A DNA stretch of 45,247 nucleotides, from assembly GCA_005239935.1 (NCBI GenBank), contig SBAZ01000013.1:1-45247 (forward strand). The letters are read 5' to 3'. Of the stretch, positions 2,029 to 42,713 are shown one piece after another. This stretch comes from Planctomycetales bacterium. Its GTDB lineage: Bacteria > Omnitrophota > Gorgyraeia > Aquiviventales > Aquiviventaceae. Position numbers and translations under genes: made by a program. Position 1 is the stretch's first letter. Every line of letters begins with the position of its first letter. The notes under the pieces were generated by a model. It searched no databases. It saw nothing but the letters and a program-made list of their open reading frames with translations, and was not told where the DNA came from.

Positions 2029-3002
2029 TCCTTCGTCGCTTCCGCGATCGTCTCAGGCGTCCAGACCGGCGCCCCGTCCCAGTGGTGGATTGCCTCGAGC
2101 ATGATCCGCACGCCGCGTTCGAAGGGCGTCCGCGGCTCCCAGCCCAACGCCTGCCGGATCTTCCCGATCGCCGCCCAGGTACAGTCCGGCTCCCCCGGCC
2201 GCTTGGGCAGGTGCACGACCGAGCCGCCGAGCAGCTCCACGAGCCGGTTGATGCTCTGCGGCGCGCCGCTCCCCACGTTCAGCGCCTCGCCGTGGAGTGT
2301 CGACCGTGCGGCGCCAAGCACGGCCTCGGCCACATCGCTGACGAACACGAAATCCCGTGTTTGGGCGCCACTCCCGACCACCGTCATGGGCTTGCCGGCC
2401 AGCTTCTGGGCCAGGAAGACTCCGAACACGGCACCGTACGCCCCGGACGTGCGGGAGCGCGGACCGTACACATTGAACAACCGCAATGAGACGGCGGGCA
2501 GCCGGTAGACCTGGCCCCAGTGGAACAGCACTTGCTCCGCCAGGTATTTCGCGGCCGCGTACGGATACTGCGGGCGGATGGCCGCAGTTTCAGGCGTCGG
2601 ATACACGTCCGGGATGCCGTAGCACGATGATGAGGCGGCGTACACGAACCGCGCGGCACCGGCCTGCCGCGCGGTCTCGAGCATCACGGTCGTCCCGGTG
2701 ACGTTGGCGTGGAAGTAGTCCAGCGGCCGCTGGATTGACGGCACGATATCGGCCAGCGCTGCAAGGTGGATGATCCAGTCATCCCGGCCCACGAGCCGGC
2801 TCATCGCCTCCGCGTCCGTGACGTCCGCCACTTCCACTGCCAACCGCGGGTCGCGGCGCACGTGTGTGAGGTTCTCCAGCCGACCGGTCGAGCAGTTGTC
2901 CACGACCAGCACGTGGTGGCCTTCACCCAGGAAGCGCTCCACGACATGGCTGCCGATGAACCCGGCCCCACCGGTGATCACGACCCGGGCCGCCACGCTC
3001 AT
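2007..3002 (-). CDS. NAD-dependent sugar epimerase/dehydratase (GalE-like extended SDR)
   Basis: [19 protein letters not shown]..., YPYAAAKY (YxxxK), LRLFNVYGPR. The start at 3002 was chosen because it forms an ATGA overlap with the wzt stop (2999-3002). The longer track ORF to 3044 adds only Gly/Arg-rich residues. Confidence 0.85.
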   Translation of the reverse strand: MSVAARVVITGGAGFIGSHVVERFLGEGHHVLVVDNCSTGRLENLTHVRRDPRLAVEVADVTDAEAMSRLVGRDDWIIHLAALADIVPSIQRPLDYFHANVTGTTVMLETARQAGAARFVYAASSSCYGIPDVYPTPETAAIRPQYPYAAAKYLAEQVLFHWGQVYRLPAVSLRLFNVYGPRSRTSGAYGAVFGVFLAQKLAGKPMTVVGSGAQTRDFVFVSDVAEAVLGAARSTLHGEALNVGSGAPQSINRLVELLGGSVVHLPKRPGEPDCTWAAIGKIRQALGWEPRTPFERGVRIMLEAIHHWDGAPVWTPETIAEATKEWFACLT

Positions 3003-4303
3003 CCCACCTGGGCCTCCAGGCACACGCCCTCTTCCACGCGCCATTCGTGGTCGAACAGCACATCGCCCTGGGTCCGACGGGGCAACGACCCAGACGGGTA
3101 ATACGCGCCGGGCGTCACTTCGAGCACGACCGCGTCATACACCGCATCCGAGAATCCGGATTCGGTGTTGCAGCCAAGGCTCAATCGATACAGTCCAGGG
3201 ACCAGTGGCAGTCGCGGAATGCGGCAGACCGCCACGCCGGCCCGCGTCAGTGGCACCGGCTCGGTGAGCGCGTCGTGGCTGCGGCAGGTCCCCAGGCGAT
3301 TGTTGTACAGGTTCGAGATCGTCACCATGAACGTGGCGTCCTGCACGCGCGCCGCGCCGGCCAGGTCATACTCCAGTTCGATGGTCAGCGGGTCGCCCGA
3401 GGCCAGCGTCCAGGTCTTACCACCGGTACGGTCGGTGACCGCCACGCTGGTCAGCCGCACGACGCCGCCCAGCGACCTCTTACGGCCCGGATGGTCCGCC
3501 AGCGGCAGCGCCCCGCGGCCCTGCCGCCGCTGCTCCTCGGAGACATCCGCCAGGTACCGGTCAATGCAGGCCTGAGTCGGGCCCACATACCGGACGCGCC
3601 CGCCGTCGAGCAGCACGCTGCGTGGGCAGAGCTTGCTCACCGCCTCCATGTTGTGGCTGACGAAGAGAATCGTCCGCCCATTCCCAGAGAGGTCGGACAT
3701 CGTGTTGAGGCACTTCAGCTGAAACGCCGCATCGCCCACCGCCAGAACCTCATCCACGAACAGGACCTCCGTGAGCAGGTGCGCCGCGACGGCGAAGCCG
3801 AGCCGCATGAACATGCCGCTTGAGTAGTGCTTGACCGGCGTGTCCATGAACGGCTCCACGCCCGCGAAGGCCACGATCTCGCCATAGCGCCGCGCAATCT
3901 CGGCCCGGCGCATGCCCAGCACCGCGCCGTTGAGGTAGACGTTCTCGCGCCCGGTCAGCTCGGGATGGAATCCGGTGCCCACCTCCAGCAGCGAGCCGAC
4001 CCGCCCGCGAATGCGCGCCCATCCCTCAGTCGGCTCAGTGATGCGCGAGAGGACCTTCAGGAGGGTGGTCTTACCAGAACCGTTGCGGCCGATCACCCCC
4101 ACCGCCTCGCCGCGACTGATTTCTAGCGCCACGTCCTTCAGCGCCCAGAGCCAGGCCCCGGGTGCGACGCCCTGTGGTGCGCTCCGCCGGTGTCCGGCAG
4201 CGAGCGCGTCGCGCAGCGTCCGGTACGCGGCGCCGCCGCCGAGCCGGTAGCGCTTACCCAGCCCCTCGGCACGGATGACCGGATCGTGCAGGCGGCTGCT
4301 CAT
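2999..4303 (-). CDS. wzt: Polysaccharide/O-antigen ABC exporter ATP-binding protein with a C-terminal carbohydrate-binding-type extension (Wzt-like)
   Basis: Walker A GRNGSGKTTLLK, ABC signature YSSGMFMRLGF, Walker B LFVDEVLAVGD. About 190 extra C-terminal residues resemble the Wzt_C beta-sandwich. The start at internal Met 4303 (MSSRLHDPVIRAEGLGKRY) lies 5 nt after the upstream stop. Confidence 0.85.
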   Translation of the reverse strand: MSSRLHDPVIRAEGLGKRYRLGGGAAYRTLRDALAAGHRRSAPQGVAPGAWLWALKDVALEISRGEAVGVIGRNGSGKTTLLKVLSRITEPTEGWARIRGRVGSLLEVGTGFHPELTGRENVYLNGAVLGMRRAEIARRYGEIVAFAGVEPFMDTPVKHYSSGMFMRLGFAVAAHLLTEVLFVDEVLAVGDAAFQLKCLNTMSDLSGNGRTILFVSHNMEAVSKLCPRSVLLDGGRVRYVGPTQACIDRYLADVSEEQRRQGRGALPLADHPGRKRSLGGVVRLTSVAVTDRTGGKTWTLASGDPLTIELEYDLAGAARVQDATFMVTISNLYNNRLGTCRSHDALTEPVPLTRAGVAVCRIPRLPLVPGLYRLSLGCNTESGFSDAVYDAVVLEVTPGAYYPSGSLPRRTQGDVLFDHEWRVEEGVCLEAQVG

Positions 4304-4307
4304 GACG

Positions 4308-5099
4308 TCACGCCGGGCGGCACAGCAGGTTGACGTGCCAGTGTTCATCCTCGCAGTGCGCTTCGACCTCGCCCATGGAGGCCCCCAGCGCCTCGACCAC
4401 GAAGGCCTGCCGCAGCCGCCGCAGAAACCCCGCCGGGTCGGCGCCGGCCCGGCGCAGGCAAAAGGGATGGAACTCCAAGACAATGACCGCGTCGCGCTGT
4501 GCCGCCAGCGTGTCGGCCGCCCCGGCCAGCGCCTGCGGCTCCGCGCCCTCGATGTCGAGCTTCACGATCAGGCCGCCCGCCGCGCCGCCGTGCGCCGCGA
4601 GGAACTCGTCCACCGTCGTGGCGCCGACGGTCAACTGTTCCGACACCGCGACCGCGTGCGAGGGCCGGCTCATGTCATGCAGACTGTGCAGGGTGGGCGC
4701 GGTCGTCGCATAGAAGGACCGTTCGCCCGGATGTTCCGCCACCGCCAGCGGCACCGGCGTGACGTTCGGGTAGCGGCGCACGTTCCGCGCCAGCAGCCGG
4801 AACACCTCCGGGTGCGGCTCGAACGCGAACACCCGCCCTGAAGGTCCCACAAGTGAGGCAAGGAGGCGCGCGAAGAAACCGAAACTCGCCCCCACGTCCA
4901 GCGCCGTCATGCCGCGCCGCACGAGCCGGCGACAGGCGCGGACCGTTTCGGCCTCGTATGTCCCGCGCACGATGCCCGCGCGCGTCCGCGGGCTCAGGGC
5001 GCCGAAGTGCCCGCCGAAATCCCACCCCTGTAGGCGGGCCATGCCGCGCACCAGCGCGTCATCGGCGGCCTGGGCGGCGCTGCGCAGCTCAGCCAGCAT
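4308..5099 (-). CDS. FkbM-family SAM-dependent methyltransferase
   Basis: ALDVGASFGFFARLL...VFAFEPHPEVFRLLARN...KLDIEGAEPQAL is the typical FkbM pattern. Start at the internal ATG 5099 (MLAELRS...); the track ORF extends to 5201 through Arg/Ser-rich sequence. Confidence 0.8.
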   Translation of the reverse strand: MLAELRSAAQAADDALVRGMARLQGWDFGGHFGALSPRTRAGIVRGTYEAETVRACRRLVRRGMTALDVGASFGFFARLLASLVGPSGRVFAFEPHPEVFRLLARNVRRYPNVTPVPLAVAEHPGERSFYATTAPTLHSLHDMSRPSHAVAVSEQLTVGATTVDEFLAAHGGAAGGLIVKLDIEGAEPQALAGAADTLAAQRDAVIVLEFHPFCLRRAGADPAGFLRRLRQAFVVEALGASMGEVEAHCEDEHWHVNLLCRPA

Positions 5100-6408
5100 C
5101 GCGCCCCCGCGCTTCTGCGGCCGCGAGCGCCCGCTCCGCCGGCCGCGGTGCGGCGACCCGGAAGAGCTCCGCTGCCGTGCGTTCGCAGACGGTGTCCGCA
5201 TACGAGTGCTCGAACGTGGCCCGGGCCCGCTGTTGCAGCCGATGTCGCAGCGGATGGTCAGACAGCGCGCGGATGATCTGGGTGACCAGGCCCGGGCCGT
5301 CGCCAGCCATCAGCACGTTATCCTCATGCACCAGCTCCGGCATGCCCGCGCGGTTGGCAGTATGCGAGACCACGCAACAGCCGTACGAAAGGGCGGACGC
5401 GATGCGGTTGCGGAAGCCGAGCGTGATGGGCGTCGGTACCAGCACGACATCCGCGGAAAGGAACTCCTCGTCCACCGACTCGACGAACCCGCGGATCTTC
5501 ACTTGGGGATCCCGCGCCGCCAGCCGCGCGAGACTCTGGGGCAGGCCGTCCGGACGTCCCACGAAGTGGAGCTGATACCGGTCCGGCCCCCAGCGGCGGT
5601 TGAGGCCGGGGATGATGTGCCGCACCGTCAGCCCGATGGCCGGGAGGTTCACCGGCGCGCCGAGCGGGCTCACCCAGAGGATCTTCCTCGGCCGGTCCTC
5701 CGGCGCCTCACACCGCAGGGCGCGCCAGCCGGGCCCGGCCGCGTCGGTCACCGGCGTCGCCAGGTACCGGCATGGTCTGCCGGAGATCCGCGCGTACCAC
5801 GCCGCGTGGTGCGCGGCCACGGCGCCGCTGGCCTGGCAGCGCCGGATCATCGCGGCCAGGTAGGGCACTTGCTCGCGCCGCATCTTCAAGACATTCGCCC
5901 CCCGCCACAACCACACGGTCCAGCGATCCCGGCCGAACGCGTACCGCCAGTCGTAATACGCGACTAGGTGCAATGGGTCGGTGAACAGCACCATCTTCGG
6001 CGTCCGGTCATAGTCATGCGCCAGCGCCAGGCCACCGTAGTGCAGCAGCAGGAGCACGTCCGGCATGAGCGCGTCCAGCCGCCGGTGCACCGCCGCCCAC
6101 GCAGGCCGGCTGGGAAAGTACGCCTCGACCGGCTGGCGGCGGAGCAGCCATGCGGCGCGAGCCAGGGCGGCGCGCGGGCGCGCCGCCGGCACCGGGAAGG
6201 TCTCAACCTCCGCGCCCAGGCGGCGCAGCGCCTGCACCTGCCGATCCACGCCCTCCCAGCCCGGCTGGACCGCGGCCAGCACACTGACGCGGTGGCCCTG
6301 CGCGAGCAACCAGTGGATCACCGCACTGCTCTTGATGAGCTGCCCCTGCAGGTCTGGCGCGTGGAACCCGAATGAGACCACCGCCACGTGATGCCGCATC
6401 ACGCTCAC
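5089..6408 (-). CDS. Glycosyltransferase, GT4-like (GT-B fold)
   Basis: The C-terminal block VVLVPTPITLGFRNRIASALSYGCCVVSHTANRAGMPELVHEDNVLMAGDGPGL is typical of a GT1/GT4 donor-binding region. GTG start at 6408 overlaps the upstream stop (GTGA). An alternative ATG lies at 6399. Confidence 0.75.
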   Translation of the reverse strand: MSVMRHHVAVVSFGFHAPDLQGQLIKSSAVIHWLLAQGHRVSVLAAVQPGWEGVDRQVQALRRLGAEVETFPVPAARPRAALARAAWLLRRQPVEAYFPSRPAWAAVHRRLDALMPDVLLLLHYGGLALAHDYDRTPKMVLFTDPLHLVAYYDWRYAFGRDRWTVWLWRGANVLKMRREQVPYLAAMIRRCQASGAVAAHHAAWYARISGRPCRYLATPVTDAAGPGWRALRCEAPEDRPRKILWVSPLGAPVNLPAIGLTVRHIIPGLNRRWGPDRYQLHFVGRPDGLPQSLARLAARDPQVKIRGFVESVDEEFLSADVVLVPTPITLGFRNRIASALSYGCCVVSHTANRAGMPELVHEDNVLMAGDGPGLVTQIIRALSDHPLRHRLQQRARATFEHSYADTVCERTAAELFRVAAPRPAERALAAAEARGRDAG

Positions 6409-7679
6409 CGGTCCGTGCCCTGCAGTGCGCCGACGCGCCGGGCGAGGAGCTGCTCAAACTCGGCGAGATACCTCGCGCAGACGACGCTGGGCGCGAACAC
6501 CTCCTCATAGATCCGACGGGCCGCGGCCTGCATCCTGCCGCGCAGCGCGCTGTCGCGGACCGCCTCGAGGATCCGCCGCCCGAGCCCGCGGCCGTCCGCG
6601 GCCAGCAGCACGTTGACCCCGTCCTGCAACTCCGGGTTGCCCAGTCGGCACGCTTCATGCGCGACCACGCAGCAGCCGTAGGAGAGCCCGGTCACGAGCC
6701 GCGTGCGCATCCCGACGCGGTGGGGGCTCGGCACGACGTACACATCCGCCGCGCGCAGCTCCGGCCCGAGGTCCTCAACGTGGCCGCGCAGCCGCACGGA
6801 CGGATGCGCACGCAACGCTCGCTCCTGGCGCGACGTGATGTCCTTCGCGCCGATGAAGTGCAGCTCAAAGCCGGTGCGACCCAGCGCCTGCTCGAGCTGC
6901 GGCAGCGCGCCGTCCAGCAGCAGCCGGATGCCGGTCCAGCCCGCCGTCCCGCCCAGGTGGCCCAGATGCACGATCCTCGGCGGTTCGCGAGGCGGCAGGC
7001 GCTGCCAGGGCTCATCCGGCGCCGGCGTCGGGATGTAGCTGCAGGGAATCCCGTGGCAGCGCAGCCACTCGGCATGCTGTGCCGCGGTCCACGTGACTGC
7101 GTCCACGCGCCGCAACGTGCTGAGCATCCACTGCGGCACGCGCCGCAACCGCATTGCCTCCAGGGCTGCCTGGAGCAGCGCTCGCGGCGAACCACCGCTG
7201 CTGAGCCGGGTGCGTACGACCAGGTGCGTCGGATCGCCGGGCAGGATGAGACGTGGAAGTTCTCGGACACTGCCTAGCGCAGCCGCCACGCCCCAGCCAA
7301 ACCCGAACAGGAGGTCATGCTCTGAGCCCAGCCGCCCGCAGAGCGCGGCCACCTGCTGCCGAATCAGCGGCACGTCATAGTAGCCCTCGTAGTCCTCCAG
7401 CCGCGGCGCCACGACGGCTCTGAGTCTCGCAAGGCGCCCAGGCCGCGCCGGCGCCGACGACCCGCCCTGCGGACGCACGACCCGCACGCCGGCGTCCTCG
7501 ATCGCGCGCAGCCACCGCCCGGCTGCACCATGCGTCGCCGGCGTCTCGGGACGCCCGGCCAAGATATACGTGACGTGATGCCCCTGTGCCGCCAGCTCGG
7601 TCGCCATGCACCAGAGATGCTGCCCCGCCCCGGTGATCGCAGGGCTAGGGATGACGTCACAGACGAAGCCGATGCGCAT
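6405..7679 (-). CDS. Glycosyltransferase, GT4-like; tandem paralogue of 5089..6408
   Basis: N-terminus MRIGFVCDVIPSPAITGAGQHLWCMATELAAQGHHVTYI. The C-terminal block VYVVPSPHRVGMRTRLVTGLSYGCCVVAHEACRLGNPELQDGVNVLLAADGRGL aligns residue by residue with the neighbouring glycosyltransferase. Confidence 0.75.
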   Translation of the reverse strand: MRIGFVCDVIPSPAITGAGQHLWCMATELAAQGHHVTYILAGRPETPATHGAAGRWLRAIEDAGVRVVRPQGGSSAPARPGRLARLRAVVAPRLEDYEGYYDVPLIRQQVAALCGRLGSEHDLLFGFGWGVAAALGSVRELPRLILPGDPTHLVVRTRLSSGGSPRALLQAALEAMRLRRVPQWMLSTLRRVDAVTWTAAQHAEWLRCHGIPCSYIPTPAPDEPWQRLPPREPPRIVHLGHLGGTAGWTGIRLLLDGALPQLEQALGRTGFELHFIGAKDITSRQERALRAHPSVRLRGHVEDLGPELRAADVYVVPSPHRVGMRTRLVTGLSYGCCVVAHEACRLGNPELQDGVNVLLAADGRGLGRRILEAVRDSALRGRMQAAARRIYEEVFAPSVVCARYLAEFEQLLARRVGALQGTDR

Positions 7680-7701: not shown

Positions 7702-8838
7702 TCAGACCGTAGCCTCCAGCCGCTGCACCGCCACGACCCAGGTGCGCATGGCGTGCGCGATCCGGCCGAAGTACGCCTTCACGTCCTGTGGCATGGTGGA
7801 CTTAGGCCAATCCTGGGCCTCCAGCCGGTCCGCCATTTCCAGGTACACATCTTCGTAGGTCGTGCCCCGGAGGGTCCAGCCGTCGATCGCCTGCCAGAGG
7901 GGGTCCGTCAGCTGGATGGACCAGAACTCGAGCTCGAGATCGCGCAGCAGCACGTGGAAGTTGCGCTGATGCAGGCAGGCCGGCAGACCGAACACCAGGC
8001 GGTCTCCCACGGCGTCGAGCGCCTTGCGAAGGAAGAAGCCGGACCAGATGTCGCCGTACCGCTCGACGACGAGCCCCCCGAGTTTCGCGGCGATGGGCAC
8101 GAAATACAGCGCCGGCAGCACGTCGCGGTGGAAGGCGGTGTTCTGGGTGTTGATGGGTGCCCAGGTGCCGGGTGCGAGCATCAGCCGCTCCTCGCGGACC
8201 TTGACCGTCTGCACCGGCTCGGCCAGCCGCGTGATCGAGTCCACATCCGGCTCCCCCAGCCACAGGCCAGCGTTGATCGCGACGCGGCCCTCGGTCATCC
8301 CGGTCTCGAGCCGCTCGTCCTTGGCCCAGCGCTTCGCGTACGGGAACCCGCGCGCGTACACGCGCCGCGCCGGCGCGGTCTCCATCATGTCGCAGGGATT
8401 GAACCACCCGGTGGAGCTGCGCACGGTCTTCAGGGTTAGGCGGGAGCCGACGATCGCATGCGCCGCATACCAGTCTTCTTGACCGACGAAATTGTCGTCG
8501 TCCACCGCCGCGAGGATCTCCGCGCCCTCTTCGGCGGCCATTAGGTAGCCGATGTTGCGCCGGTTGTCCGAATTGTAGGGAATCAGCGGCTTCAGATCCG
8601 GAAACCGGTCGAGGTAGCGCTCCTGGTCCGGCACGTCCACGTAGCGCGCCGCGAACCCCTGCGCCGTCACGCGGGCGGCCAGCTCCCGCACCGCGTCATG
8701 GGGCGTCTTGCGGTCGCCGATGATGATGGCGTTGACGCGGTCCAGGTGTCCGTACTTCGCGAAATTCTCGCGGTAGCCCTCCAGCAGGGACGGGACATTG
8801 ATGGTCGTCATCACGATTGTCAGGCGTGGAGCCGTCAT
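7702..8838 (-). CDS. GT75 / reversibly-glycosylated-polypeptide (RGP, UDP-arabinopyranose mutase) family protein
   Basis: Motifs match my recollection of plant RGP/UAM: AVDDDNFV (plant TIDDDCFV), YARGFPY (FVRGYPF), NAGLWLGEPDVDSITRL (SHGLWLNIPDYDAPTQL), RYGDIWSGFF (RYDDMWAGWC). 378 aa. ATGA overlap with the upstream stop at 8835-8838. Confidence 0.65.
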   Translation of the reverse strand: MTAPRLTIVMTTINVPSLLEGYRENFAKYGHLDRVNAIIIGDRKTPHDAVRELAARVTAQGFAARYVDVPDQERYLDRFPDLKPLIPYNSDNRRNIGYLMAAEEGAEILAAVDDDNFVGQEDWYAAHAIVGSRLTLKTVRSSTGWFNPCDMMETAPARRVYARGFPYAKRWAKDERLETGMTEGRVAINAGLWLGEPDVDSITRLAEPVQTVKVREERLMLAPGTWAPINTQNTAFHRDVLPALYFVPIAAKLGGLVVERYGDIWSGFFLRKALDAVGDRLVFGLPACLHQRNFHVLLRDLELEFWSIQLTDPLWQAIDGWTLRGTTYEDVYLEMADRLEAQDWPKSTMPQDVKAYFGRIAHAMRTWVVAVQRLEATV

Positions 8839-9707
8839 CCGCTGCGAACCTCTATGGCGGCCAGAAGTGACCGCACGATGTCGTCCGTCGTATGCTGCGG
8901 CCGCCAGCCCAGGTCGGCGCCCGCGCGTGCGATGCTCGTGAACAGGCTGAAGGCTTGCCCGGTGGTCGCCGCCACCTCCGTCCGGCCCTGGCCCACGAGG
9001 GCCACCACGCGCGCGGCCAGCTCCGCCATGGTGACCGGCGCGCCTGTGCTCAGATTGTAGGTCCGCGATTCAAATCCGCCCCTGCCGAGCAGCCCCACGG
9101 CGGCCGCGAACGCTGAAGCCACGTCCTCCGGGTGTACGAAGTCCCGGCGGTGGCGCCCGCCTCCGAACAGCTGAATCGTGCCAGCCCGCCGTGCGATTTC
9201 GGTGAAGTCGCCGATCGCGTGTCCCTCCTTGCAGCCGGGCCCTACGACCAGCGTCGGGCGCAGAATCACGGAGCGGATGCCGTACCGCGCGTAGGCGCGG
9301 GTCATCACCTCGGCCGCCACCTTGCTCGCCGCGTAGGGATGGCGTGGCGCATAGGGCGAAGCCTCAGTCATCGCCTCTTCCCCTGCCCCGTGCACGGTCA
9401 GGCTCGAGGTGAGAATGAACTGACGCACCCCGGTGGCCCGGCACGCCTCGAGCAGGTGCACCGTCCCCAAGGCGTTGACCGCAAAATACTCCTGCGGCCG
9501 CTCGGCGCTCGGCTGCGCCCCGCAGAGCGCCGCCAGGTGGCACACCAGCTCCGGGCCGGCGCGCCGCAGCGCGGCGAGGCAGGCTGATGGATCGAGCACA
9601 TCCAGCGAGGTCCGGTCCGTCACCGTGACGTCGTGCGCGGCGCGCAGCGCCTCCGCGATGTACCGCCCCAGAAACCCCTGACCGCCGGTCACCAGCACTC
9701 GCGCCAT
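8835..9707 (-). CDS. NAD(P)-dependent sugar epimerase/reductase (short extended SDR of RmlD-like size)
   Basis: MARVLVTGGQGFLGRYIAEAL, YAASKVAAE (YxxxK), 290 aa. The pattern DRTSLDVLDPSACLAALRRAGPELVCHLAAL resembles dTDP-4-dehydrorhamnose reductase-type proteins, but the assignment is not secure. Confidence 0.7.
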   Translation of the reverse strand: MARVLVTGGQGFLGRYIAEALRAAHDVTVTDRTSLDVLDPSACLAALRRAGPELVCHLAALCGAQPSAERPQEYFAVNALGTVHLLEACRATGVRQFILTSSLTVHGAGEEAMTEASPYAPRHPYAASKVAAEVMTRAYARYGIRSVILRPTLVVGPGCKEGHAIGDFTEIARRAGTIQLFGGGRHRRDFVHPEDVASAFAAAVGLLGRGGFESRTYNLSTGAPVTMAELAARVVALVGQGRTEVAATTGQAFSLFTSIARAGADLGWRPQHTTDDIVRSLLAAIEVRSG

Positions 9708-9713
9708 CGCCGC

Positions 9714-10565
9714 CTAGTAGCCCACCGGAATCCGAAACAGCCGCCGGTGCGTCGCCTGCAGTTCGCGGTAGAGCCGCGTGTTCACGAAGATCACGTCCGC
9801 CTCTGGGCTGGCTCCGACCCGCCCGTGGTCGTACACCTGGATGAGCCGGAACCCCTCGCGCTCGATCACCGGCCGCTCGTCCTCGAAGATCGTCTGCCCC
9901 TCATACAGCCGGATGCGTCGGTCGCCGGAGTACACCGTCTCCAGCTGCACGAAGAGGCAGTGCGGCAGATACCGCCCCAGGCTCAGAAAGACGTCGAGGT
10001 CGGTGCCCTGCGCATCAATCTTGAGGAAGTGGATGACCTCCTCCTGCAGCCCATGTACCTCGATCAGGCGCGACAACGGCCACACCGGCACGGTCCGCGT
10101 CCGCACCAGCCCCTCGATCGACCGGTCCACGAACCAGCGCGTGGCGCGCTGGGACGGGTCATGTGTAATGTTCGCTGCGTCCATCCGCAGGAGCGAGTTG
10201 CACGACGGGTCTGTGTACTCGTACAAGGTACGCTCCTGCTCCGGACCCCTGGCCACCGCCGCCTCGACGAAGACCGAGTACGGCTGCACATGCGGGTGCC
10301 GAACCGGGTCGATCCCGATGGACCAGACCGGCGGATACACGCGCTGCGAGAACCGTCGCAGGAACTTGCCGATGAAGCATCCCACGTCAATCAGTACGAT
10401 GCGCGGCGGATCCATTGCGTTCAGGCATCGCGTGATTCCATCCAGGGGATGCTCCGGCTGCCGAAGCAGCGTGTGCTTCGCCGCCAGGACCCACCCGTGG
10501 CGCCGTTTCACGCGGTCCTTCGCGCGCTGCCAGAGGGTCGGTGGCGCGGCCGTGCTGACCGGCAT
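9714..10565 (-). CDS. FkbM-like methyltransferase (second copy, divergent)
   Basis: VLIDVGCFIGKFL...HFLKIDAQGTDLDVF is an FkbM-type pattern. Start at the internal ATG 10565 (MPVSTAAPPTLW), 2 nt after the upstream stop. The track ORF to 10910 adds Gly/Arg-rich sequence that overlaps fcl. Confidence 0.6.
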   Translation of the reverse strand: MPVSTAAPPTLWQRAKDRVKRRHGWVLAAKHTLLRQPEHPLDGITRCLNAMDPPRIVLIDVGCFIGKFLRRFSQRVYPPVWSIGIDPVRHPHVQPYSVFVEAAVARGPEQERTLYEYTDPSCNSLLRMDAANITHDPSQRATRWFVDRSIEGLVRTRTVPVWPLSRLIEVHGLQEEVIHFLKIDAQGTDLDVFLSLGRYLPHCLFVQLETVYSGDRRIRLYEGQTIFEDERPVIEREGFRLIQVYDHGRVGASPEADVIFVNTRLYRELQATHRRLFRIPVGY

Positions 10566-10567
10566 GG

Positions 10568-11521
10568 TCACCGCCCCGCCGTCTGGGTTTGCCGCGCCCG
10601 GTACCAGGCGACGGTCCGGGCTAGGCCCTCGCGCAGCGGCGTCCTGGCCCGCCAGCCCAGCTCGCGCTCGGCCTTGCTGACGTCCATGCAGCGGTGCGCC
10701 TGCCCATCGGGGCGCGCGGCGTCCCACACGATCTGGCCACGAAAGCCAGTCACCTCCCGCAGCCGCTCCACGACCTCGCGGACAGAGGTCTCCACCCCCG
10801 TGGAGAGGTTCACCAGTTCTGGTCGGTCGTACACCTCGGTGGCGCGCAGCAGCCCCTCGGCCACGTCCGCGGCATAGACGAAGTCCCGCGTAGGCGAGCC
10901 GGTGCCCCACACCCCCACCTCCGGCCGCTCCTCGTCCACCGCCTCGACGAATTTTCGTACCAGCGCTGGGACCACATGCGCCCGCTCCAGATCAAAATTG
11001 TCATGCGGCCCATACAGGTTGCCCGGCACGCCGAGCACACTGACGAATCCGTACTGCCGGCCATAGGCCTGGGATTGGATGTGCAGCATCCGCTTCGCGA
11101 GCGAATACGGCGCGCTCTCCGCCTGCGGAAAGCCGTCCCACAGCGAGGTCTCGCGCAGTGGCTGTGGGGCATGCTCCGGGTAGCCGCAGCCCGCGGCCGC
11201 GGCAACAAACTTTCGCGCGCCAGCGCGCCAGGCGTGGTGGAGCATGAGGATGCCCATCATGGCGTTCCGGTAGAAAAAGTCGGCCGGGTAGGCCGCGTTC
11301 GCCCCGATGCCGCCGACGAGTCCTGCGAGATGGATCACCACCTCGGCCGGATGCTCCTGGAACAGCCGCTCCACCTCGGCCTCGTGGGTCAGGTCGTACT
11401 CGCGGCTGCGCACCACGAACACCGAGGTGCACCCCGCGGTCGCCAGCCGCTCCACAACGTGCGAGCCCAGGAATCCGGCCCCGCCGGTCACCAGCACCCG
11501 CCGCCCGGCCCAGAAGCTCAT
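10568..11521 (-). CDS. fcl: GDP-L-fucose synthase family (Fcl/WcaG-like) NADPH-dependent 3,5-epimerase/4-reductase
   Basis: MSFWAGRRVLVTGGAGFLGSH, GANAAYPADFFYRNAMMG, PYSLAKR, NLYGPHDNFDLERAHVVPALVRKF, VWGTGSPTRDF. This is collinear with my recollection of E. coli Fcl. ATGA overlap with the gmhB stop at 11518-11521. Confidence 0.85.
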   Translation of the reverse strand: MSFWAGRRVLVTGGAGFLGSHVVERLATAGCTSVFVVRSREYDLTHEAEVERLFQEHPAEVVIHLAGLVGGIGANAAYPADFFYRNAMMGILMLHHAWRAGARKFVAAAAGCGYPEHAPQPLRETSLWDGFPQAESAPYSLAKRMLHIQSQAYGRQYGFVSVLGVPGNLYGPHDNFDLERAHVVPALVRKFVEAVDEERPEVGVWGTGSPTRDFVYAADVAEGLLRATEVYDRPELVNLSTGVETSVREVVERLREVTGFRGQIVWDAARPDGQAHRCMDVSKAERELGWRARTPLREGLARTVAWYRARQTQTAGR

Positions 11522-12078
11522 CGCACACCGGCTCCGTGGTGCAGCCGGCGGCCCAGCTGGGCCACCGCGTCTGCCAGGTTTGCTGCGACGAGGTCCGGCG
11601 CCACCGCGCCCTCCCCGCACACGCGGTGGCCCTCCCCGGTCCGCACCAGCACCGAGAAGGCGCCGATCTGTCGGCCGAACTCCACGTCGCATGCGTTGTC
11701 GCCGATCACGAGGCTCTCCTCCAGGGCGAAGCCGAACCGCCGCGCAGCCTCGTAGGCCAGCAGCGGCGCCGGCTTGCGGCACGCGCACCCCTCTTCCGGC
11801 AGGTGCGGGCAAAAATAGACAGCTTCCACGGCCACGTGCGCCGCCTCCAGCAGTTGGAGCATCCGCGCGTGGATCTGCGCCAGCTGCTCCAGTGTCACCA
11901 GCCCGCGCCCGATGCCGGACTGGTTGGTGATGACGATCAGGCCGAAGCCGAGGCGCTGCAGCCGGCGCAATGCCGCGCCAGCGCCCGGCAGCAGCGCCAC
12001 ATCCTCGACGCGCGAGAGATAATGGTGTTTCGTCAGAATCGTGCCGTCGCGGTCCAGCAACGCGTAACGGCGGCTCAC
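11518..12078 (-). CDS. gmhB: D-glycero-D-manno-heptose 1,7-bisphosphate phosphatase (HAD-IIIA)
   Basis: LLDRDGT (HAD motif I), VITNQSGIGRG, zinc-site pattern CPHLPEEGCACRKP, GDNACD. GTG start overlaps the upstream stop (GTGA at 12075-12078). Confidence 0.85.
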   Translation of the reverse strand: MSRRYALLDRDGTILTKHHYLSRVEDVALLPGAGAALRRLQRLGFGLIVITNQSGIGRGLVTLEQLAQIHARMLQLLEAAHVAVEAVYFCPHLPEEGCACRKPAPLLAYEAARRFGFALEESLVIGDNACDVEFGRQIGAFSVLVRTGEGHRVCGEGAVAPDLVAANLADAVAQLGRRLHHGAGVR

Positions 12079-12812
12079 GGGCCAGACGCTCCGGTCAGCC
12101 GCTGCACATGCGCCCCGGCCTGCGCGTACGCCTCAGGGACGCCGATGTCGAGTAGCGCCTCTGCCCCGGTCCACGCGGCCAGCCCGCGCCCGACCCATGC
12201 CGGGAACACCTCTCGCTCGAGGGACACCGGCCGGCCGGCGCCGATGGAGGCCAGGAACGCCTGGCTCAGCAGATACACCCCGGCGCTGACCCATCCGGGG
12301 CCGCCGGCGGCCGATTTCTCCACGAATCTCCGCACCATGCCGTTCTCGGCCAGGTCCACCGCCCCGTAGCGGGTCGTGTCCGACTGCCGCGCCAGCGCCA
12401 GCGTGGCCGCCGCGCCGCTCGCGCGATGCCAGGCCAGGAAGGCGCGTAGATCCAGCCGGCACAGCGAATCGCCGTTGAGCGCCAGCACCGGCTCGCTCGT
12501 GAGCAGCGGCCGCGCCAGGCGCAGCGCTCCCGCCGTGCCGAGCGGCGAGAGCTCCTGTGAATACCGCAGGTTCACCGTGCCGTATTTGACGCCCAAGGCC
12601 TGGGTGATCATCGCGCCGCGATCGCCGGTGCACAGCACCGCCTCGGCCACGCCACCGTGCTGCAGCTGTTCGAGAATGTAGGACACCGCTGGCCGGCCGG
12701 CCACCGGCGCCAGCGCCTTCGGCCGGTCCGGGACCGCCGGACGCAGCCGCCGTCCCTGTCCGCCGACCAGCACGGCGGCCACGAGTCCCTCCGGCCCGTC
12801 GGCGGCGGTCAC
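12075..12812 (-). CDS. hddC: Sugar-1-phosphate nucleotidyltransferase, HddC-like (heptose-1-phosphate guanylyltransferase type)
   Basis: The N-terminus AAVLVGGQGRRLRPAVPDRPKALAPVAGRP matches the G-x-G-x-R-L nucleotidyltransferase signature. The gene sits between the hddA-like kinase and gmhB. GTGA overlap at 12809-12812. Confidence 0.65.
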   Translation of the reverse strand: MTAADGPEGLVAAVLVGGQGRRLRPAVPDRPKALAPVAGRPAVSYILEQLQHGGVAEAVLCTGDRGAMITQALGVKYGTVNLRYSQELSPLGTAGALRLARPLLTSEPVLALNGDSLCRLDLRAFLAWHRASGAAATLALARQSDTTRYGAVDLAENGMVRRFVEKSAAGGPGWVSAGVYLLSQAFLASIGAGRPVSLEREVFPAWVGRGLAAWTGAEALLDIGVPEAYAQAGAHVQRLTGASGP

Positions 12813-13825
12813 GGCGTGGTGCTCCGCCAGGTCTGCAGCCCGTGGTCGTCAAACGCGACGTCGGTGAACCGGCCGCCGTGGCGTTCCAGCTCCTGCCGCA
12901 ACGTGTGCTGCCGGTCGGTTTCGCAGAAGAGCAGCAGGTACCCGCCCCCGCCCGCGCCGAGCAGCTTGCCACCGGTGGCGCCGCGGTGCATGGCGAGCTG
13001 GTACAGCTCCTCCGCCTTGGTGCCCTCGGCGACGTGCGGGTTCATGCGCTTCTTGTTCTCATACGCCGCGCTCAGCAGCTCGCCGAAGCGGCGCAGCCGC
13101 CCCTTCAGCAGCGCCTCCTTCGCCTCATAGGCCAGCTGATGCAGCGCCTGCAACCCGGCAATCGTCTCGGCGCGGCCCTCCTTGTAATAGCGCGCCTGCT
13201 TCTGGACCAGCCCCAGGTCCGGCCGCACTTGGCCCAAGTAGCACACCAGGAGGTGCGCCTCGAGGTCGTTCAGAATCCCCTGGGGGATGCGCAGGGGGTT
13301 TACCAGCACCCGGTCCTTGTGGAACTCGATGAGGTTGAACCCGCCGAAGGTCGTCGCATACTGGTCCTGCTTGCCCCCGGCGATGCCCAAGTCCACGCGC
13401 TCGATCACGAAATTAAGCTCCGCCAGCTCGTACGGATCCAGGACGGTGTTCGTGTACTCCGCGAGCGCGCCGATCATGGCGGAGGTCACCGCCGAGGAGC
13501 CACCCAACCCGCTGCCGGGGGGCGCGTCGCAGCGGACATCCAGGTTGAACCCGACCTCGACCCCCATGCGCCGGACCACCGCCTTGGCCAGCTCCAGCAC
13601 ACCATCGCGGGGGGGATCCTCATCGACCGCGTAGGAAACCTCAACGTTGAGATCCAGCGAGCGCATTCGCACGCCGGCGTCGTCACGCGGGTAGAGGCTG
13701 ACGTACGCGTACCGGTTGATCGTGCTCGAGAGCACCGCCCCCCCCTGCTCCTCGTAATAGTGCGGCAGATCCGTCCCGCCCCCGGCAAAGCTGATGCGCA
13801 GCGGTGATTTCGCGCGGATGATCAT
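12809..13825 (-). CDS. hddA: GHMP-family sugar kinase, HddA-like (D-glycero-alpha-D-manno-heptose 7-phosphate kinase type)
   Basis: MIIRAKSPLRISFAGGGTDLPHYY, and the GHMP motif PPGSGLGGSSAVTSA. ATG at 13825 was chosen. An alternative upstream ATG at 13891 would overlap the preceding gene. Confidence 0.7.
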   Translation of the reverse strand: MIIRAKSPLRISFAGGGTDLPHYYEEQGGAVLSSTINRYAYVSLYPRDDAGVRMRSLDLNVEVSYAVDEDPPRDGVLELAKAVVRRMGVEVGFNLDVRCDAPPGSGLGGSSAVTSAMIGALAEYTNTVLDPYELAELNFVIERVDLGIAGGKQDQYATTFGGFNLIEFHKDRVLVNPLRIPQGILNDLEAHLLVCYLGQVRPDLGLVQKQARYYKEGRAETIAGLQALHQLAYEAKEALLKGRLRRFGELLSAAYENKKRMNPHVAEGTKAEELYQLAMHRGATGGKLLGAGGGGYLLLFCETDRQHTLRQELERHGGRFTDVAFDDHGLQTWRSTTP

Positions 13826-13877
13826 CGCCCTGGGCGCGCTCCGGGGCCGCGCGGCCGGTGCGGCGGGCGCGGCCGGC

Positions 13878-14816
13878 TTAGAAAAAGGCATTGCTGTACG
13901 GGTTGAAGACATCGAGCAGCGGGGCCGCGCGGCCAACCTCTACGATGCCGTCATCCAGCGTCCGCGCCACGCGGAAACCCGTGGATCGCAGCTTCGAAAA
14001 ATCCACGACGTAATTGCGCTGGTCTGGATCCCGCCCAGTCTCGGAGTACTCGACCTCGCACGCCACATGCTGCTGGATCCGGCGCGCCAGCTCGCGCTTC
14101 GTGACGTTGAGCGACTCGTCCCCGAGGTTGAACACTTGATCGCGCATCGCTGGGAGGTGCTCGAGCGCGAAGAGAAATGCGCGGCCGAAATCCCCTACGT
14201 GCAGAAAGGCGCGCATGTAATCGGGCTCATACACCACGAGCCGCCGGTCGCGGACCGCCCGGTACACGAAGTCGTTGAGCAGCAGGTCCAACCGCATTAA
14301 CGGCGAGAGCCCGAACGCGGTCGCCGGCCGGAACACGACGGTGTTGCCGCTCGCCAGTAGCAGTTGCTCGGCGGCGAGCTTTGTCCGGCCGTAGAGCGTG
14401 AGAGGCTCCGGCGCCATCGCCTCGGTGCACCGCTCCCTGGCGCCTGCGCCGTAATTGCTGAGGCTCGAGGCAAACACCAGGGGCACTCGCGTCCCGCGGA
14501 TCTGATCCAGCAGCCGGGTCGCCTCGAGGTTCACCTGCTGTGCCAGCCAGGGGTCCTTCTGGCAAGCCGGAAAGCCGACGATGGCCGCGAGATGGATGAT
14601 GGCGTCCATGTCCGCGATGGCCTGGCGCACCGTGGCCTCATCGCGCACGTCACCGCGCATGACTTCCAGGGATGGGTGGCCGCTCATCGGCACCAGTCCG
14701 GCCGCACCCTTGCGCAGGTTGTCCAGCACGCGGACGCGGTAGCCCGCCTCGAGCAGCACGGGCACCATGACGGACCCGATATATCCGGCGCCGCCGGTCA
14801 CAAGGAGACTACGCAT
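13878..14816 (-). CDS. NAD-dependent epimerase/dehydratase (extended SDR)
   Basis: MRSLLVTGGAGYIGSVMVPVLLEAGYRVRVLDNL. The N-terminus is close to the partial SDR at 1..463. 312 aa. Confidence 0.8.
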   Translation of the reverse strand: MRSLLVTGGAGYIGSVMVPVLLEAGYRVRVLDNLRKGAAGLVPMSGHPSLEVMRGDVRDEATVRQAIADMDAIIHLAAIVGFPACQKDPWLAQQVNLEATRLLDQIRGTRVPLVFASSLSNYGAGARERCTEAMAPEPLTLYGRTKLAAEQLLLASGNTVVFRPATAFGLSPLMRLDLLLNDFVYRAVRDRRLVVYEPDYMRAFLHVGDFGRAFLFALEHLPAMRDQVFNLGDESLNVTKRELARRIQQHVACEVEYSETGRDPDQRNYVVDFSKLRSTGFRVARTLDDGIVEVGRAAPLLDVFNPYSNAFF

Positions 14817-16343: not shown

Positions 16344-17360
16344 TCACCGCTCAGTCAAGAGTTCGTGAAGCGTGGATTCGACCGTTGCCGGGTCCCGCGC
16401 CGAGAAGTACCAGTCGATGGTGCGGTGCAGCCCGTCCCAGAATGTGACCGTAGGCCCCCAGTCCAGTAGCCGCTTCGCGAGCCGGTTGTCCGCCACGCGG
16501 TTCAGCGGGCCGGTGGGCATGTGCGGCGCGGTCTGGATCCTGGCCGTGTGGCCGGTGTACCGGAGAATTTCCTGCGCACATTCGATGACCTTGATGCGCT
16601 CCATGGTGCCGAGGTTGACCGCGGTGCCGTCCTCAATCCGCTCGCCGGCGAGGATCAGGCCGGAGACGATATCGTCCACATGGGTCCAGTTGCGGATCTG
16701 CTCCCCGGTGCCCCAGATGACGTACGGGTCCTCCTTGATGAACGCCCGCGCGATCATCGCGATCACCGCGTGGTTTTCATGGCCCCGCGGCCCGTAGACC
16801 GTGAAGAATCGGCACGAGGCCGACCTGAGCCCGCGTTCCTTGTAGTAGGCCTTCAGCGTCAGTTCGCCCATCAGCTTCGCCCACCCGTAGAGGTTGTCCG
16901 CGTCATATGGCGGGCCGACCATGTCCTCGGTCAGATACAGCTCCTTCGAGGGATCCATCTGGATGTAATTGGGATAGACGCACCCGGACGAGGCGAACAC
17001 CACCTTCTCCACGCCAGCGTCCGCGGCCAGTTTGAAGAGTTGGCCGTCCAGGATGAGGTTCGTGGAGCAGGCGACCTGGTGCAGGTCCACGTAGCCCCGG
17101 CCGCCATGGTCGGCCGCTAGGTGGAAGATGACCTGCATCCGCTCCACGGCCTGCCGCGCGACGGCCGGGTCCAGCAGGTCCGCTTGCCGGAAGTCCACGG
17201 TCTCGCGCTGCAGGTGCTCGCGCAGGTTTTCCAGCTTCCCGCTGGAGAGATTGTCCACGACGCGCACGCGAGCGCCCCGAGCCGCCAGCGCGTCCACCAG
17301 ATGCGACCCGATGAACGACGCCCCGCCGGTCACCAACACTCGCTTGCCGCTCCAGAACAT
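16344..17360 (-). CDS. NAD-dependent epimerase/dehydratase (extended SDR)
   Basis: MFWSGKRVLVTGGASFIGSHLVDAL, YGWAKLMGE (YxxxK). Internal ATG at 17360 is preceded by GGAGAGAGG. The track ORF to 17432 adds Gly/Arg-rich residues. Confidence 0.8.
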   Translation of the reverse strand: MFWSGKRVLVTGGASFIGSHLVDALAARGARVRVVDNLSSGKLENLREHLQRETVDFRQADLLDPAVARQAVERMQVIFHLAADHGGRGYVDLHQVACSTNLILDGQLFKLAADAGVEKVVFASSGCVYPNYIQMDPSKELYLTEDMVGPPYDADNLYGWAKLMGELTLKAYYKERGLRSASCRFFTVYGPRGHENHAVIAMIARAFIKEDPYVIWGTGEQIRNWTHVDDIVSGLILAGERIEDGTAVNLGTMERIKVIECAQEILRYTGHTARIQTAPHMPTGPLNRVADNRLAKRLLDWGPTVTFWDGLHRTIDWYFSARDPATVESTLHELLTER

Positions 17361-17374
17361 CCTCTCTCCTTCGG

Positions 17375-21108: not shown

Positions 21109-21110
21109 CG

Positions 21111-21992
21111 TCACCGCCCTCCGGAGCCGAGAATGTCGGCGAATACCCGCTCGCGCCGCCGGAAATACCAGGCGCCGCCGAGGAACAGCACCCCGGAGGC
21201 CCCGGCCGAGACCGCGAGCACTGGGCCCGGGGCGGTGCCGACACCGAAGAGCGCCCACCGGAAACCCTCCACGACGCCAACCATCGGGTTGAGTGCGTAG
21301 AGCGGCCGCCATGCCAGAGGCACCATACTGCTCGGATAGACGACTGGCGTGACGAACAACCACAGCTGGGTCAGAAACGGCAGCACGTACCGGACATCAC
21401 GGTACTCGAGGTTCAGCGCCGACAGCCAGAAGCCCAGGCCGAGCGACGTCATCAGCATCAGGAGGACGAACGACGGCAACCAGACAATGCCGAGGGTGGG
21501 CGCCAGGCCGTAGTACACCATGAGGCCCACGAGCAGGATCGAGGCGATGGCAAAATCCACCAGTGCGGCGAGCACCGTGGAAAGCGGCACGAGCAGCCGC
21601 GGAAAATAGACGCGGGTGATCAGGCGTTGGTCCGCCAGCAGGCTGCCGGCTGATTCGGACAGCGCCCGGGAGAAGATCTGCCACGGTAACAGGCCAGCGT
21701 ATGCGAACACGGGATACGGGATCCCCTCGGACGGCAACTGCGCCAACTGGCCGAAAAAGAGCGTGAACACGAGCATCATGGACAGCGGCTGCGCCACGGC
21801 CCAGGCGATGCCGATGGCTGTCTGCTTATAGCGCACCTTCAAGTCCCGCCAGACGAGGAAATAGGCGAGTTCGCGGTACCGCCACAGGTCCCGCAGTCCC
21901 AGGCTGAAGCCCCGGGTTGCACGGATGTCGATCACCTCTGGCGGCAGCCTGGGAGCCCATGCGTTGGCCTCGGACATCGTGGCTGTTGTCAT
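21111..21992 (-). CDS. wzm: ABC-2 type polysaccharide exporter permease (Wzm/KpsM/TagG-like)
   Basis: [35 protein letters not shown] is the ABC-2 signature region, followed by six hydrophobic segments. ATG at 21992 forms an ATGA overlap with the uxs stop. Confidence 0.85.
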
Positions 21993-22939
21993 GACTTCGC
22001 GAGTGCCTGCGCGTGCTGGCGAAACCATCCGATGGTCGCCGCCAGGCCCTCCCGAACCGGCACGCGCGGCCGCCACCCCGTTAACCGGGTAATCGTGGCC
22101 AGGTCCGGCCGGCGCTGCTTCGGGTCATCCGTCGGCAGGGGGCGGAATTCGATCCGGCTGCCAGCGCCGTTGACGAGCTCCAACACCAATTTGGCCAGTT
22201 CCAAAATGGTCCATTCCTCAGGATTCCCCACGTTCACCGGGTCGGGATGTGCCACGTCCATAAGCCCGCGGATTCCCTCCACTAGGTCATCGACATAGCA
22301 GAGGCTGCGTGTCTGCCCGCCGTCGCCGTACACGGTCAGGGCCTCGCCGCGCAGGGCCTGGCTGATGAAGTTCGGGATGGCGCGGCCATCGTTCAGGCGC
22401 ATCCGCGGCCCGTAGGTGTTGAAAATGCGGACGATGCGGGTATCGATCCCGTGTTCCCGGTGGTAGGCCATCGTCAGCGCCTCCGCGAACCGCTTGGTCT
22501 CGTCATAGACGCCGCGCGGCCCCACGGGGTTGACCCGGCCCCAGTACGTCTCCGGCTGGGGATGGACTTCCGGGTCCCCATAGACCTCCGACGTCGAGGC
22601 CAGCATGAACCTGGCTCCCTTCGCCTTGGCCATGCCCAGCATATTCAGCGTGCCGAGGGAGCCGACCTTCAGCGTCGGAATGGGATACTTGAGGTAGTCC
22701 GGGGGGCTGGCTGGTGAAGCAAAATGGAGGATATAGTCCACGGGTGCCGGCAGGTCAAGCGGCTTGCTGATGTCGTGCTGGAGGAAGCGGAACCGGCGCC
22801 CGGCGCGCAAGTGGGCCACGTTGCTCTGCGTGCCGGTGATGAAGTTGTCCACGCACACGATGTCGTGGTCGTCGCGCAGCAACCGCTCGCAGAGATGCGA
22901 CCCGATGAACCCTGCCCCGCCGGTGATGAGGACCTGCAT
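21989..22939 (-). CDS. uxs: UDP-glucuronate decarboxylase (UDP-xylose synthase)
   Basis: [88 protein letters not shown]. All are UXS hallmark blocks. Confidence 0.9.
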
Positions 22940-29516: not shown

Positions 29517-29521
29517 CGGCC

Positions 29522-34055: not shown

Positions 34056-34116
34056 GGTTCCATCCTCTTTGGAGGACGACACTTACGCGAAGCGCGTGCG
34101 TGGCACGAAGGCGCTA

Positions 34117-42712: not shown

Positions 42713-42713
<1 letters not shown>

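Follow-up and report, generated by a model that had tools for sequence, protein, structure and literature searches.

Which nucleotide sugar is converted by a bacterial relative of the plant arabinopyranose mutases? The question is raised by a gene on contig SBAZ01000013.1 (assembly GCA_005239935.1), of which a stretch of 45,247 nt, hereafter the window, was analysed. The gene encodes a 378-aa protein of glycosyltransferase family 75 (GT75), and the first-pass annotation of the window had taken it for a plant-type reversibly glycosylated polypeptide (RGP), acting as a UDP-arabinopyranose mutase (UAM) at the end of a UDP-sugar pathway. The assignment to this family holds, but the plant subtype, the UDP nucleotide, and the arabinose pathway do not, since the residues are MtdL-like and the partner genes are GDP-heptose genes. 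Sequence, structure prediction, and gene context together make it, on balance, probable that the protein is a mutase converting GDP-heptopyranose to GDP-heptofuranose and feeding an ABC-transporter-dependent glycan. From the gene context we infer that the substrate is a heptose, and likewise its configuration and the glycan for which it is destined.

Membership of the family is observed directly. The open reading frame (ORF) was found where it had been reported (Table 1), and its third codon positions are 89% G+C, as is typical of the real genes of the window. A search with the Pfam profile PF03214 (RGP), which had been proposed as a check, gave 56.3 bits (E = 4e-15), well above the gathering cut-off of 23.8; residues 8–374 were aligned with profile positions 8–340 of 342, nearly end to end, and the match is far beyond chance. 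All four motif blocks listed in the first-pass annotation are present, namely DDDNF (residues 113–117), RGFPY (163–167), GLWLGEPDVDSITRL (191–205), and RYGDIWSG (260–267), and the arginine that is glycosylated in the plant enzymes is R163. No NCBIfam model was found for the protein. Judged by profile and predicted structure, the protein is a genuine member of the GT75 sugar-ring mutase family. An exhaustive HMMER search of public genomes and metagenomes returned 2,528 clusters of homologues (50% identity) at E ≤ 1e-3 and 279 at E ≤ 1e-30; the named homologues in word-indexed searches are nearly all labelled 'hypothetical protein'.

Within the family, sequence comparison and modelling place the protein with the bacterial MtdL type and not with the plant type. 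MtdL, a GT75 enzyme that has been crystallised, belongs to the A201A antibiotic pathway of the actinomycete Marinactinospora thermotolerans; it interconverts the pyranose and furanose forms of GDP-L-galactose and GDP-L-fucose and uses Mn2+ instead of FAD (PMC9937993). When all PDB sequences were searched, the best matches were the seven MtdL entries (7XPR, 7XPS, 7XPT, 7XPU, 7XPV, 8HL8, and 7YUA, deposited under the name 'Transglycosylse'; E = 1.3e-66, 228 bits), whereas the plant UAM 8CID (rice UAM2) reached only E = 4e-6 and 29 bits. The identity to MtdL is 36–39% (38.6% over 337 aligned positions) and that to plant RGP1 is 26%, the RGP1 sequence used being recognised as plant-type by its 355-bit match to 8CID. 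The AlphaFold2 model (pLDDT 93.3, pTM 0.92) comprises a GT-A N-terminal domain, a GT75-specific core, and C-terminal helical domains. This fold superposes on MtdL with a template modelling (TM) score of 0.92–0.94 and a root-mean-square deviation of 1.7 Å over about 376 alignment columns, compared with 0.66–0.72 and 8.4 Å on 8CID. The label 'plant-type' was consequently dropped. The accompanying view that an RGP-type mutase would be unusual in a bacterium is outdated as well: GT75 mutases from bacteria date back to 2017, with MtdL and Hyg20 as the sole characterised bacterial members at the time of the cited study (PMC9937993), and a bacterial RGP-type mutase is not new in itself.

The residues of the active site were compared by mapping the functional residues of MtdL, with roles taken from the structural study (PMC9937993), onto the protein through an HMMER alignment. 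All 17 of the 17 mapped catalytic and ligand-binding residues are conserved (Table 1), counting the conservative replacement of MtdL Ser228 by T231. In an alignment of 89 GT75 sequences (86 from fetched loci, the window protein, MtdL, and Ata16), R163, D198, and D263 are invariant (89/89). It is reported that mutation of most of these residues abolishes the mutase activity of MtdL (PMC9937993). The preference of MtdL for GDP over UDP depends on Thr13 and Ser86 as key sites, which are Pro and Asp in plants; S86D abolishes GDP binding, while N42D weakens it only about 6-fold (PMC9937993). When aligned by MAFFT with full-length MtdL and Ata16, T11 falls on Thr13 and S90 on Ser86, and across the 89 sequences the first site is Thr in 88 and the second Ser in 83, suggesting that the window protein is specific for GDP. 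The sugar site is likewise bacterial, with Asp91 at the position of MtdL Asp87, Thr231 at that of Ser228, and Q232. Plant enzymes carry Ser and Gly at the Asp87 and Ser228 sites, and swaps destroy or reduce the activity in both directions, MtdL D87S and AtRGP2 S91D each abolishing it (PMC9937993). With the plant RGP/UAM proteins (OsUAM1, AtRGP1–3, and 8CID) the window protein thus shares the Pfam and CAZy family, the DXD motif, the nucleophilic or glycosylated Arg, the Asp base, and the His, but it differs in the base-contact residues (Thr/Lys/Ser instead of Pro/Asp/Asp) and in the sugar site (Asp/Thr/Gln instead of Ser/Gly/Met). The UDP specificity implied by a plant-type enzyme is contradicted at T11, S90, D91, T231, and Q232, where plants have Pro, Asp, Ser, Gly, and Met.

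The substrate is suggested by the genes upstream. From 460 to 45023 every gene is on the minus strand. GT75 closes a cassette and is translationally coupled to the gene before it, its start overlapping the stop of that gene as ATGA. The cassette begins with SDR312, a short-chain dehydrogenase/reductase (SDR) resembling the GDP-heptose C4 dehydrogenase Cj1427, and continues with putative genes for an HddA-like kinase, a guanylyltransferase, a GmhB-like phosphatase, an Fcl-like epimerase/reductase, an FkbM methyltransferase, and SDR290. SDR312 and its orthologues retain the YxxxK motif and are without the catalytic Glu of 4,6-dehydratases (the equivalent of Gmd Glu135); a reading of SDR312 as a divergent 4,6-dehydratase was rejected because this Glu is missing. 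The kinase aligns over its full length with the HddA model NF049969 (250 bits, cut-off 600), and heptose kinases (4USM/4USK, 4N3O, and 3K85) match it at 208–244 bits compared with 73–77 bits for fucokinase. For the guanylyltransferase, the two models given in Table 1 score below their cut-offs, yet rank above those of the UDP and dTDP types. The Fcl-like protein keeps Cys109, Tyr136, Lys140, and His179. The triad residue Ser107 of E. coli GDP-fucose synthase, however, is Ala in this protein and in eight orthologues from heptose-type cassettes (loci L001, L003–L005, L007, and L015–L017; motif AGCGYPEHA), while the Fcl genes of fucose-type contexts retain Ser or Thr there. In the heptose cassettes, the Fcl-like enzyme may only epimerise, with SDR290 performing the reduction. 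SDR290 matches GalE-type enzymes and GDP-6-deoxy-D-mannose reductase best in the PDB (80–95 bits) and is a candidate C4 reductase or additional epimerase. A search of the window with E. coli Gmd as query found no orthologue. The FkbM gene, whose in-frame ATG lies 5 nt past the Fcl-like stop, stands between the Fcl-like gene and SDR290 in this window only and is absent from the related cassettes; it may point to an O-methylated form of the sugar.

The conservation of the cassette was directly observed among related loci, of which 9 came from a genome scan, 80 from a metagenome scan, and more from contig look-ups, all probed with the window proteins. Loci whose GT75 is at least 55% identical to the window protein form a close clade, which is monophyletic in a rough neighbour-joining tree, and co-occurrence was counted in those distinct loci of the clade for which 5 kb or more upstream of GT75 was available (n = 10). 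SDR312 and the Fcl-like gene lie upstream of GT75 on the same strand in all ten, SDR312 always being the first cassette gene. The HddA-like kinase was found in 8/10, SDR290 directly upstream of GT75 in 7/10, and the guanylyltransferase in 6/10. The full gene order of the window, including GmhB, is reproduced in locus L017. Another contig (P0003) carries a cassette with GmhB, the kinase, and GT75 but lacks SDR312; its neighbours are unrelated genes, with no glycosyltransferases among them, which suggests a self-contained unit for precursor synthesis. Three further lineages (L044; L051, L055, and L056; L008) likewise have heptose genes close to GT75, in other arrangements. Elsewhere the partners change: in L027, L028, and L058 a Gmd gene (product 54–56% identical to E. 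coli Gmd) is followed by Fcl and then GT75, and in L011, L043, L048, and L054 an epimerase of the type of SDR362, a further window gene, adjoins GT75, often with a GT2 gene after it. The partners thus differ by GT75 clade, and the context therefore tracks the predicted substrate; at least three recurring contexts (Gmd-Fcl, SDR362-type epimerase, and GDP-heptose cassette) each predict one. The named relatives of the cassette are metagenome-assembled genomes (MAGs) of Planctomycetota, at 57–62% identity. While the GT75 family is known, its place within a conserved GDP-heptose cassette appears to be new.

A pathway can be proposed from these genes. The HddA-like kinase would phosphorylate heptose 7-phosphate to the 1,7-bisphosphate, which the GmhB-like phosphatase would convert to the 1-phosphate. 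SDR312 would generate the 4-keto-heptose with the 6-OH kept, and the Fcl-like enzyme, SDR290, or both would carry out C3/C5 epimerisation and C4 reduction to an L-configured GDP-heptopyranose, for which the L-galacto configuration is plausible by analogy with the substrates of MtdL and Hyg20. As the cassette contains a C4 dehydrogenase but lacks a 4,6-dehydratase, the 6-OH would be retained in the product. This end product of the cassette would be the substrate of GT75, which by homology is expected to be a Mn2+-dependent, flavin-independent GDP-sugar mutase of the MtdL type. Asp115 and His290 would hold Mn2+ on the diphosphate of the GDP-pyranose, and Arg163, assisted by Asp263 as general base, would attack C1 and displace GDP to give a covalent Arg-sugar intermediate. 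The sugar ring would then open and reclose through O4, and the GDP would be added back, yielding GDP-heptofuranose from GDP-heptopyranose. The downstream GT4 glycosyltransferases may use this furanose donor to build a methyl-capped polysaccharide exported by Wzm/Wzt.

Several points weigh against a heptose substrate, and some of them would fit the alternative that GT75 converts GDP-L-galacto- or GDP-L-fucopyranose to the furanose, the heptose genes supplying another residue of the same glycan. The characterised bacterial enzymes, MtdL and Hyg20, have been shown active only on hexoses, namely GDP-L-galactose and GDP-L-fucose (PMC9937993), and all sugar-contact residues of MtdL are conserved in the window protein. 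The Fcl-like neighbour is nearest to the true GDP-fucose synthase (204 bits to E. coli Fcl compared with about 150–158 bits to C. jejuni MlghC/DdahC), with the activity of this enzyme made uncertain by the Ala at the triad position. SDR362 is moderately similar to GDP-mannose 3,5-epimerase (121–125 bits) and could supply GDP-L-galactose, and in other clades its homologues adjoin GT75 or the order Gmd-Fcl-GT75 is found. As for the heptose pathway itself, its NCBIfam matches are all under the curated equivalog cut-offs, most related cassettes lack GmhB and 4/10 lack the guanylyltransferase, and tblastn of the window with E. coli GmhA gave no match at E ≤ 1e-3, although a GmhA gene may be located elsewhere in the genome. 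Moreover, PDB 6VO6, the match of SDR312, is an entry that is probably Cj1427, going by the depositor's name string. At the third base-contact site, the protein has Lys44 where MtdL has Asn42; Lys occupies this position in 78 of the 89 aligned sequences. A hexose substrate nevertheless seems unlikely, if deserving of serious attention. With no Gmd orthologue in the window, the Fcl-like enzyme would be left without a supplier of 6-deoxy-4-keto hexose, and SDR362 is equally UXS-like and archaeal-epimerase-like, and the close-clade loci have none in the 10 kb preceding GT75. The invariant partner in the clade is SDR312, joined in most loci by the heptose kinase, and on the P0003 contig the kinase cassette and GT75 are the only sugar genes.

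The route from UDP-glucose to UDP-L-arabinofuranose through Ugd, Uxs, a 4-epimerase, and a mutase, as envisaged in the first-pass annotation, has in its favour that the Ugd and Uxs genes are real, that several GalE-like SDRs are present and unassigned as was noted there, and that plant GT75 members catalyse the UDP-L-arabinopyranose mutase reaction (PMC9937993). Both genes are indeed in the window, but Uxs lies 13 kb and Ugd 22 kb from GT75, outside the conserved cassette, in a block shared with RmlA/RmlB-like genes and with genes for an aminotransferase, a WecC/TviB-like dehydrogenase, and a WbpP/WbgU-like epimerase. A Uxs orthologue was found in 0/92 distinct related loci, and, with extein-only probes, a Ugd homologue in 0/14 close-clade loci and in 7 distant GT75 loci. 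Given the GDP-type, bacterial-type residues (Thr and Ser at the base sites and Asp91, Thr231, and Gln232 at the sugar site, not the plant Pro/Asp and Ser/Gly/Met) and the lack of a conserved linkage to Ugd and Uxs, a function as UDP-L-arabinopyranose mutase is very improbable; the conserved partners are instead GDP-heptose genes, and the scores for plant UAM in sequence and structure fall well behind those for MtdL. Equally improbable is that GT75 is not a mutase in vivo but a self-glycosylating, Arg-linked protein or primer, or a conventional GT-A glycosyltransferase. GT75 members do autoglycosylate the conserved Arg, some plant members are without mutase activity (PMC9937993), and the model has a GT-A fold whose distant structural matches are transferases. 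The inactive plant members, however, have lost the equivalents of His287 and Arg257 (PMC9937993), which are present here as H290 and R260, as is every residue whose mutation abolishes the mutase activity of MtdL. The last place in a nucleotide-sugar cassette, sometimes without nearby transferases, also fits a precursor-forming enzyme.

As a GDP-heptopyranose mutase, the window protein would extend what is known of its closest characterised relatives. With MtdL and Hyg20, the latter from the hygromycin A pathway of Streptomyces hygroscopicus, it shares the family, the three-domain fold, the Mn2+-binding and catalytic residues, and the two key residues of GDP-type base selectivity, and it is predicted to share the flavin-independent, Arg-mediated ring contraction. 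It differs from them in its low identity, its place in a separate clade of the tree, and the Lys in place of Asn42. Whereas MtdL and Hyg20 belong to actinomycete antibiotic clusters, the window gene is part of a Wzm/Wzt surface-polysaccharide cluster in an uncultured bacterium of the PVC group. In place of a GDP-mannose epimerase or Gmd/Fcl, the window gene has GDP-heptose genes as conserved partners, and a heptose is therefore the predicted substrate.

Heptofuranoses occur in serotypes HS:10 and HS:41 of C. jejuni; HS10.16 and HS41.15, predicted there as GDP-6-deoxy-heptopyranose mutases, are uncharacterised and described as being of the FADH2-dependent Glf type (PMC10680097). The kinase, phosphatase, guanylyltransferase, and C4 dehydrogenase of the window are homologues of enzymes in the C. 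jejuni GDP-heptose pathways (HddA, GmhB, HddC, Cj1427, MlghB/C, and DdahA–C). The epimerase step is assigned to a cupin in C. jejuni and to an Fcl-like SDR in the window cassette, and compared with the GDP-6-deoxy-heptose pathways the cassette has no 4,6-dehydratase. The window mutase, as a GT75 protein, would be mechanistically distinct from the predicted FADH2/Glf-type mutases. No paper linking GT75 to heptoses was found in a literature search, and the link appears to be unreported.

We tentatively propose that this GT75 clade, seen to date in uncultured Planctomycetota and probably Omnitrophota, consists of flavin-independent GDP-heptopyranose mutases; no earlier GT75 enzyme would then be known to use a seven-carbon sugar. 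If so, a second heptofuranose route would exist beside that of the predicted Campylobacter mutases, mechanistically unrelated to it, and the substrate range of the Mn2+/arginine mechanism of GT75 would widen from pentoses and hexoses to heptoses. The product could be a D-glycero-L-hexo-heptofuranose, possibly O-methylated, a sugar that to our knowledge has not been described in any glycan, and the envelopes of poorly studied PVC-group bacteria would then contain an undescribed sugar. Furanose sugars are often immunodominant or essential on microbial surfaces, and we know of none in mammals. The nucleotide donors of furanoses are hard to synthesise chemically, and the enzyme would offer a flavin-free biocatalyst for GDP-heptofuranose. 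The types of GT75 context could also serve as a simple annotation rule for a large prokaryotic family that is mostly unannotated.

Table 1. Genes of the window discussed in the text (nucleotide positions in the window) and functional residues of the GT75 protein (residue numbers).
Feature	Position	Strand	Basis or remark
Wzt ABC-transporter ATPase with C-terminal glycan-binding domain	2999..4483	minus	PF00005 + PF14524 Wzt_C
FkbM methyltransferase	4308..5201	minus	PF05050
Second GT4 glycosyltransferase	5089..6408	minus	PF13692
GT4 glycosyltransferase directly downstream of GT75	6405..7679	minus	PF13692
GT75 NDP-pyranose/furanose mutase, predicted GDP-heptopyranose mutase	7702..8838	minus	378 aa; PF03214, MtdL similarity, AlphaFold2 model
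SDR290, short extended SDR, RmlD/Rmd-like	8835..9707	minus	290 aa; Pfam Epimerase
FkbM methyltransferase inside the cassette	9714..10565	minus	PF05050; ORF to 10910, likely start ATG at 10565
Fcl-like GDP-4-keto-sugar 3,5-epimerase/4-reductase	10568..11512	minus	NF047922 270 bits, below 500 cut-off
GmhB-like heptose 1,7-bisphosphate 7-phosphatase	11518..12078	minus	NF006506 155 bits, cut-off 178
Sugar-1-phosphate guanylyltransferase (ManC/HddC-like)	12075..12812	minus	NF052502 159 bits, NF049965 (HddC) 106 bits
HddA-like D-glycero-D-manno-heptose 7-phosphate kinase	12809..13936	minus	likely start Met38, ~13825
SDR312, Cj1427-like GDP-heptose C4 dehydrogenase	13878..14816	minus	260 bits to PDB 6VO6/6VO8
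SDR362, unassigned epimerase	16344..17432	minus	PDB 6PMH 136 bits, UXS1 127 bits, GDP-mannose 3,5-epimerase 121–125 bits
Wzm ABC-2 permease	21111..22076	minus	PF01061
Uxs (UDP-glucuronate decarboxylase)	21989..22939	minus	385 bits to human UXS1
Ugd (UDP-glucose 6-dehydrogenase), TuaD-like	31317..34082	minus	NF047673 565 bits in two pieces; intein + LAGLIDADG
DXD motif	D113-D114-D115		aligns with MtdL D109–D111
Mn2+ ligand	H290		aligns with MtdL H287
Arg nucleophile	R163		aligns with MtdL R159
Partners of the Arg nucleophile	D198, D263 (general base)		align with MtdL D195, D260
Beta-phosphate and ring-oxygen contact	R260		equivalent of MtdL Arg257
Loop A	R292, H295		conserved in comparison with MtdL
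Further conserved residues	Q232, D91, R94, T231		in comparison with MtdL

The genes downstream of the cassette and the transporter genes give the cluster the appearance of an ABC-transporter-dependent polysaccharide locus, as it contains Wzm, Wzt, two GT4 glycosyltransferases, and an FkbM methyltransferase. The GT4 gene nearest to GT75 begins 22 nt past its stop, and its product is a candidate user of the furanose donor, while a chain-terminating methylation is a possible role of the FkbM protein encoded next to Wzt. SDR362 had been guessed by eye to be a GDP-mannose 3,5-epimerase, an assignment that was not adopted, its PDB matches being ambiguous.

Further genes of the window concern other sugars. 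An RmlB-like dTDP-glucose 4,6-dehydratase ('HVSTDEVYG') is encoded at 29621–30556 on the minus strand and adjoins an RmlA-like gene (30556–31320), and the cluster thus uses sugars activated with UDP, dTDP, and GDP. The Ugd gene and the WecC/TviB-like gene (26709–29621, minus strand) encode paralogues that are 30% identical, each carrying a LAGLIDADG intein at the same site directly before the catalytic Cys ('GYGGF|CFEG...VVHN|CFPKD' and 'GIGGH|CLDG...IVHN|CIPSD'). An HldE-like bifunctional protein is encoded at 460–2028 (minus strand), with the order of domains reversed relative to E. coli HldE (nucleotidyltransferase N-terminal, PfkB kinase C-terminal) and with all NCBIfam scores far under the cut-offs. 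At 17375–19192 and 19189–21363, a 605-aa polytopic membrane protein without a Pfam match and an adjoining Asn-synthase-like amidotransferase are encoded; the pair might represent a polymerase- or ligase-like protein and a uronamide-forming enzyme. Two small putative ORFs with CxxC motifs and no Pfam match (14809–15156 and 15153–15458; 115 and 101 aa) lie between SDR312 and a 2-hydroxyacid dehydrogenase gene. Neither an Rfam scan nor a tRNA scan gave a match in the window.

Just past the glycan cluster, a tandem pair of GGDEF diguanylate cyclases, of which one has a GAF domain, is encoded at 38850–41566. The AccD protein (42713–43642) is 81–83% identical to proteins of 'Candidatus Omnitrophica' MAGs, compared with about 60% for the Planctomycetota relatives of the cassette. 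A planctomycetotal origin of the window, suggested by the named GT75 relatives, was given up in favour of Omnitrophota, to which AccD points. Omnitrophota and Planctomycetota are both phyla of the PVC group, and this taxonomic discordance could reflect transfer within the group or sparse sampling.

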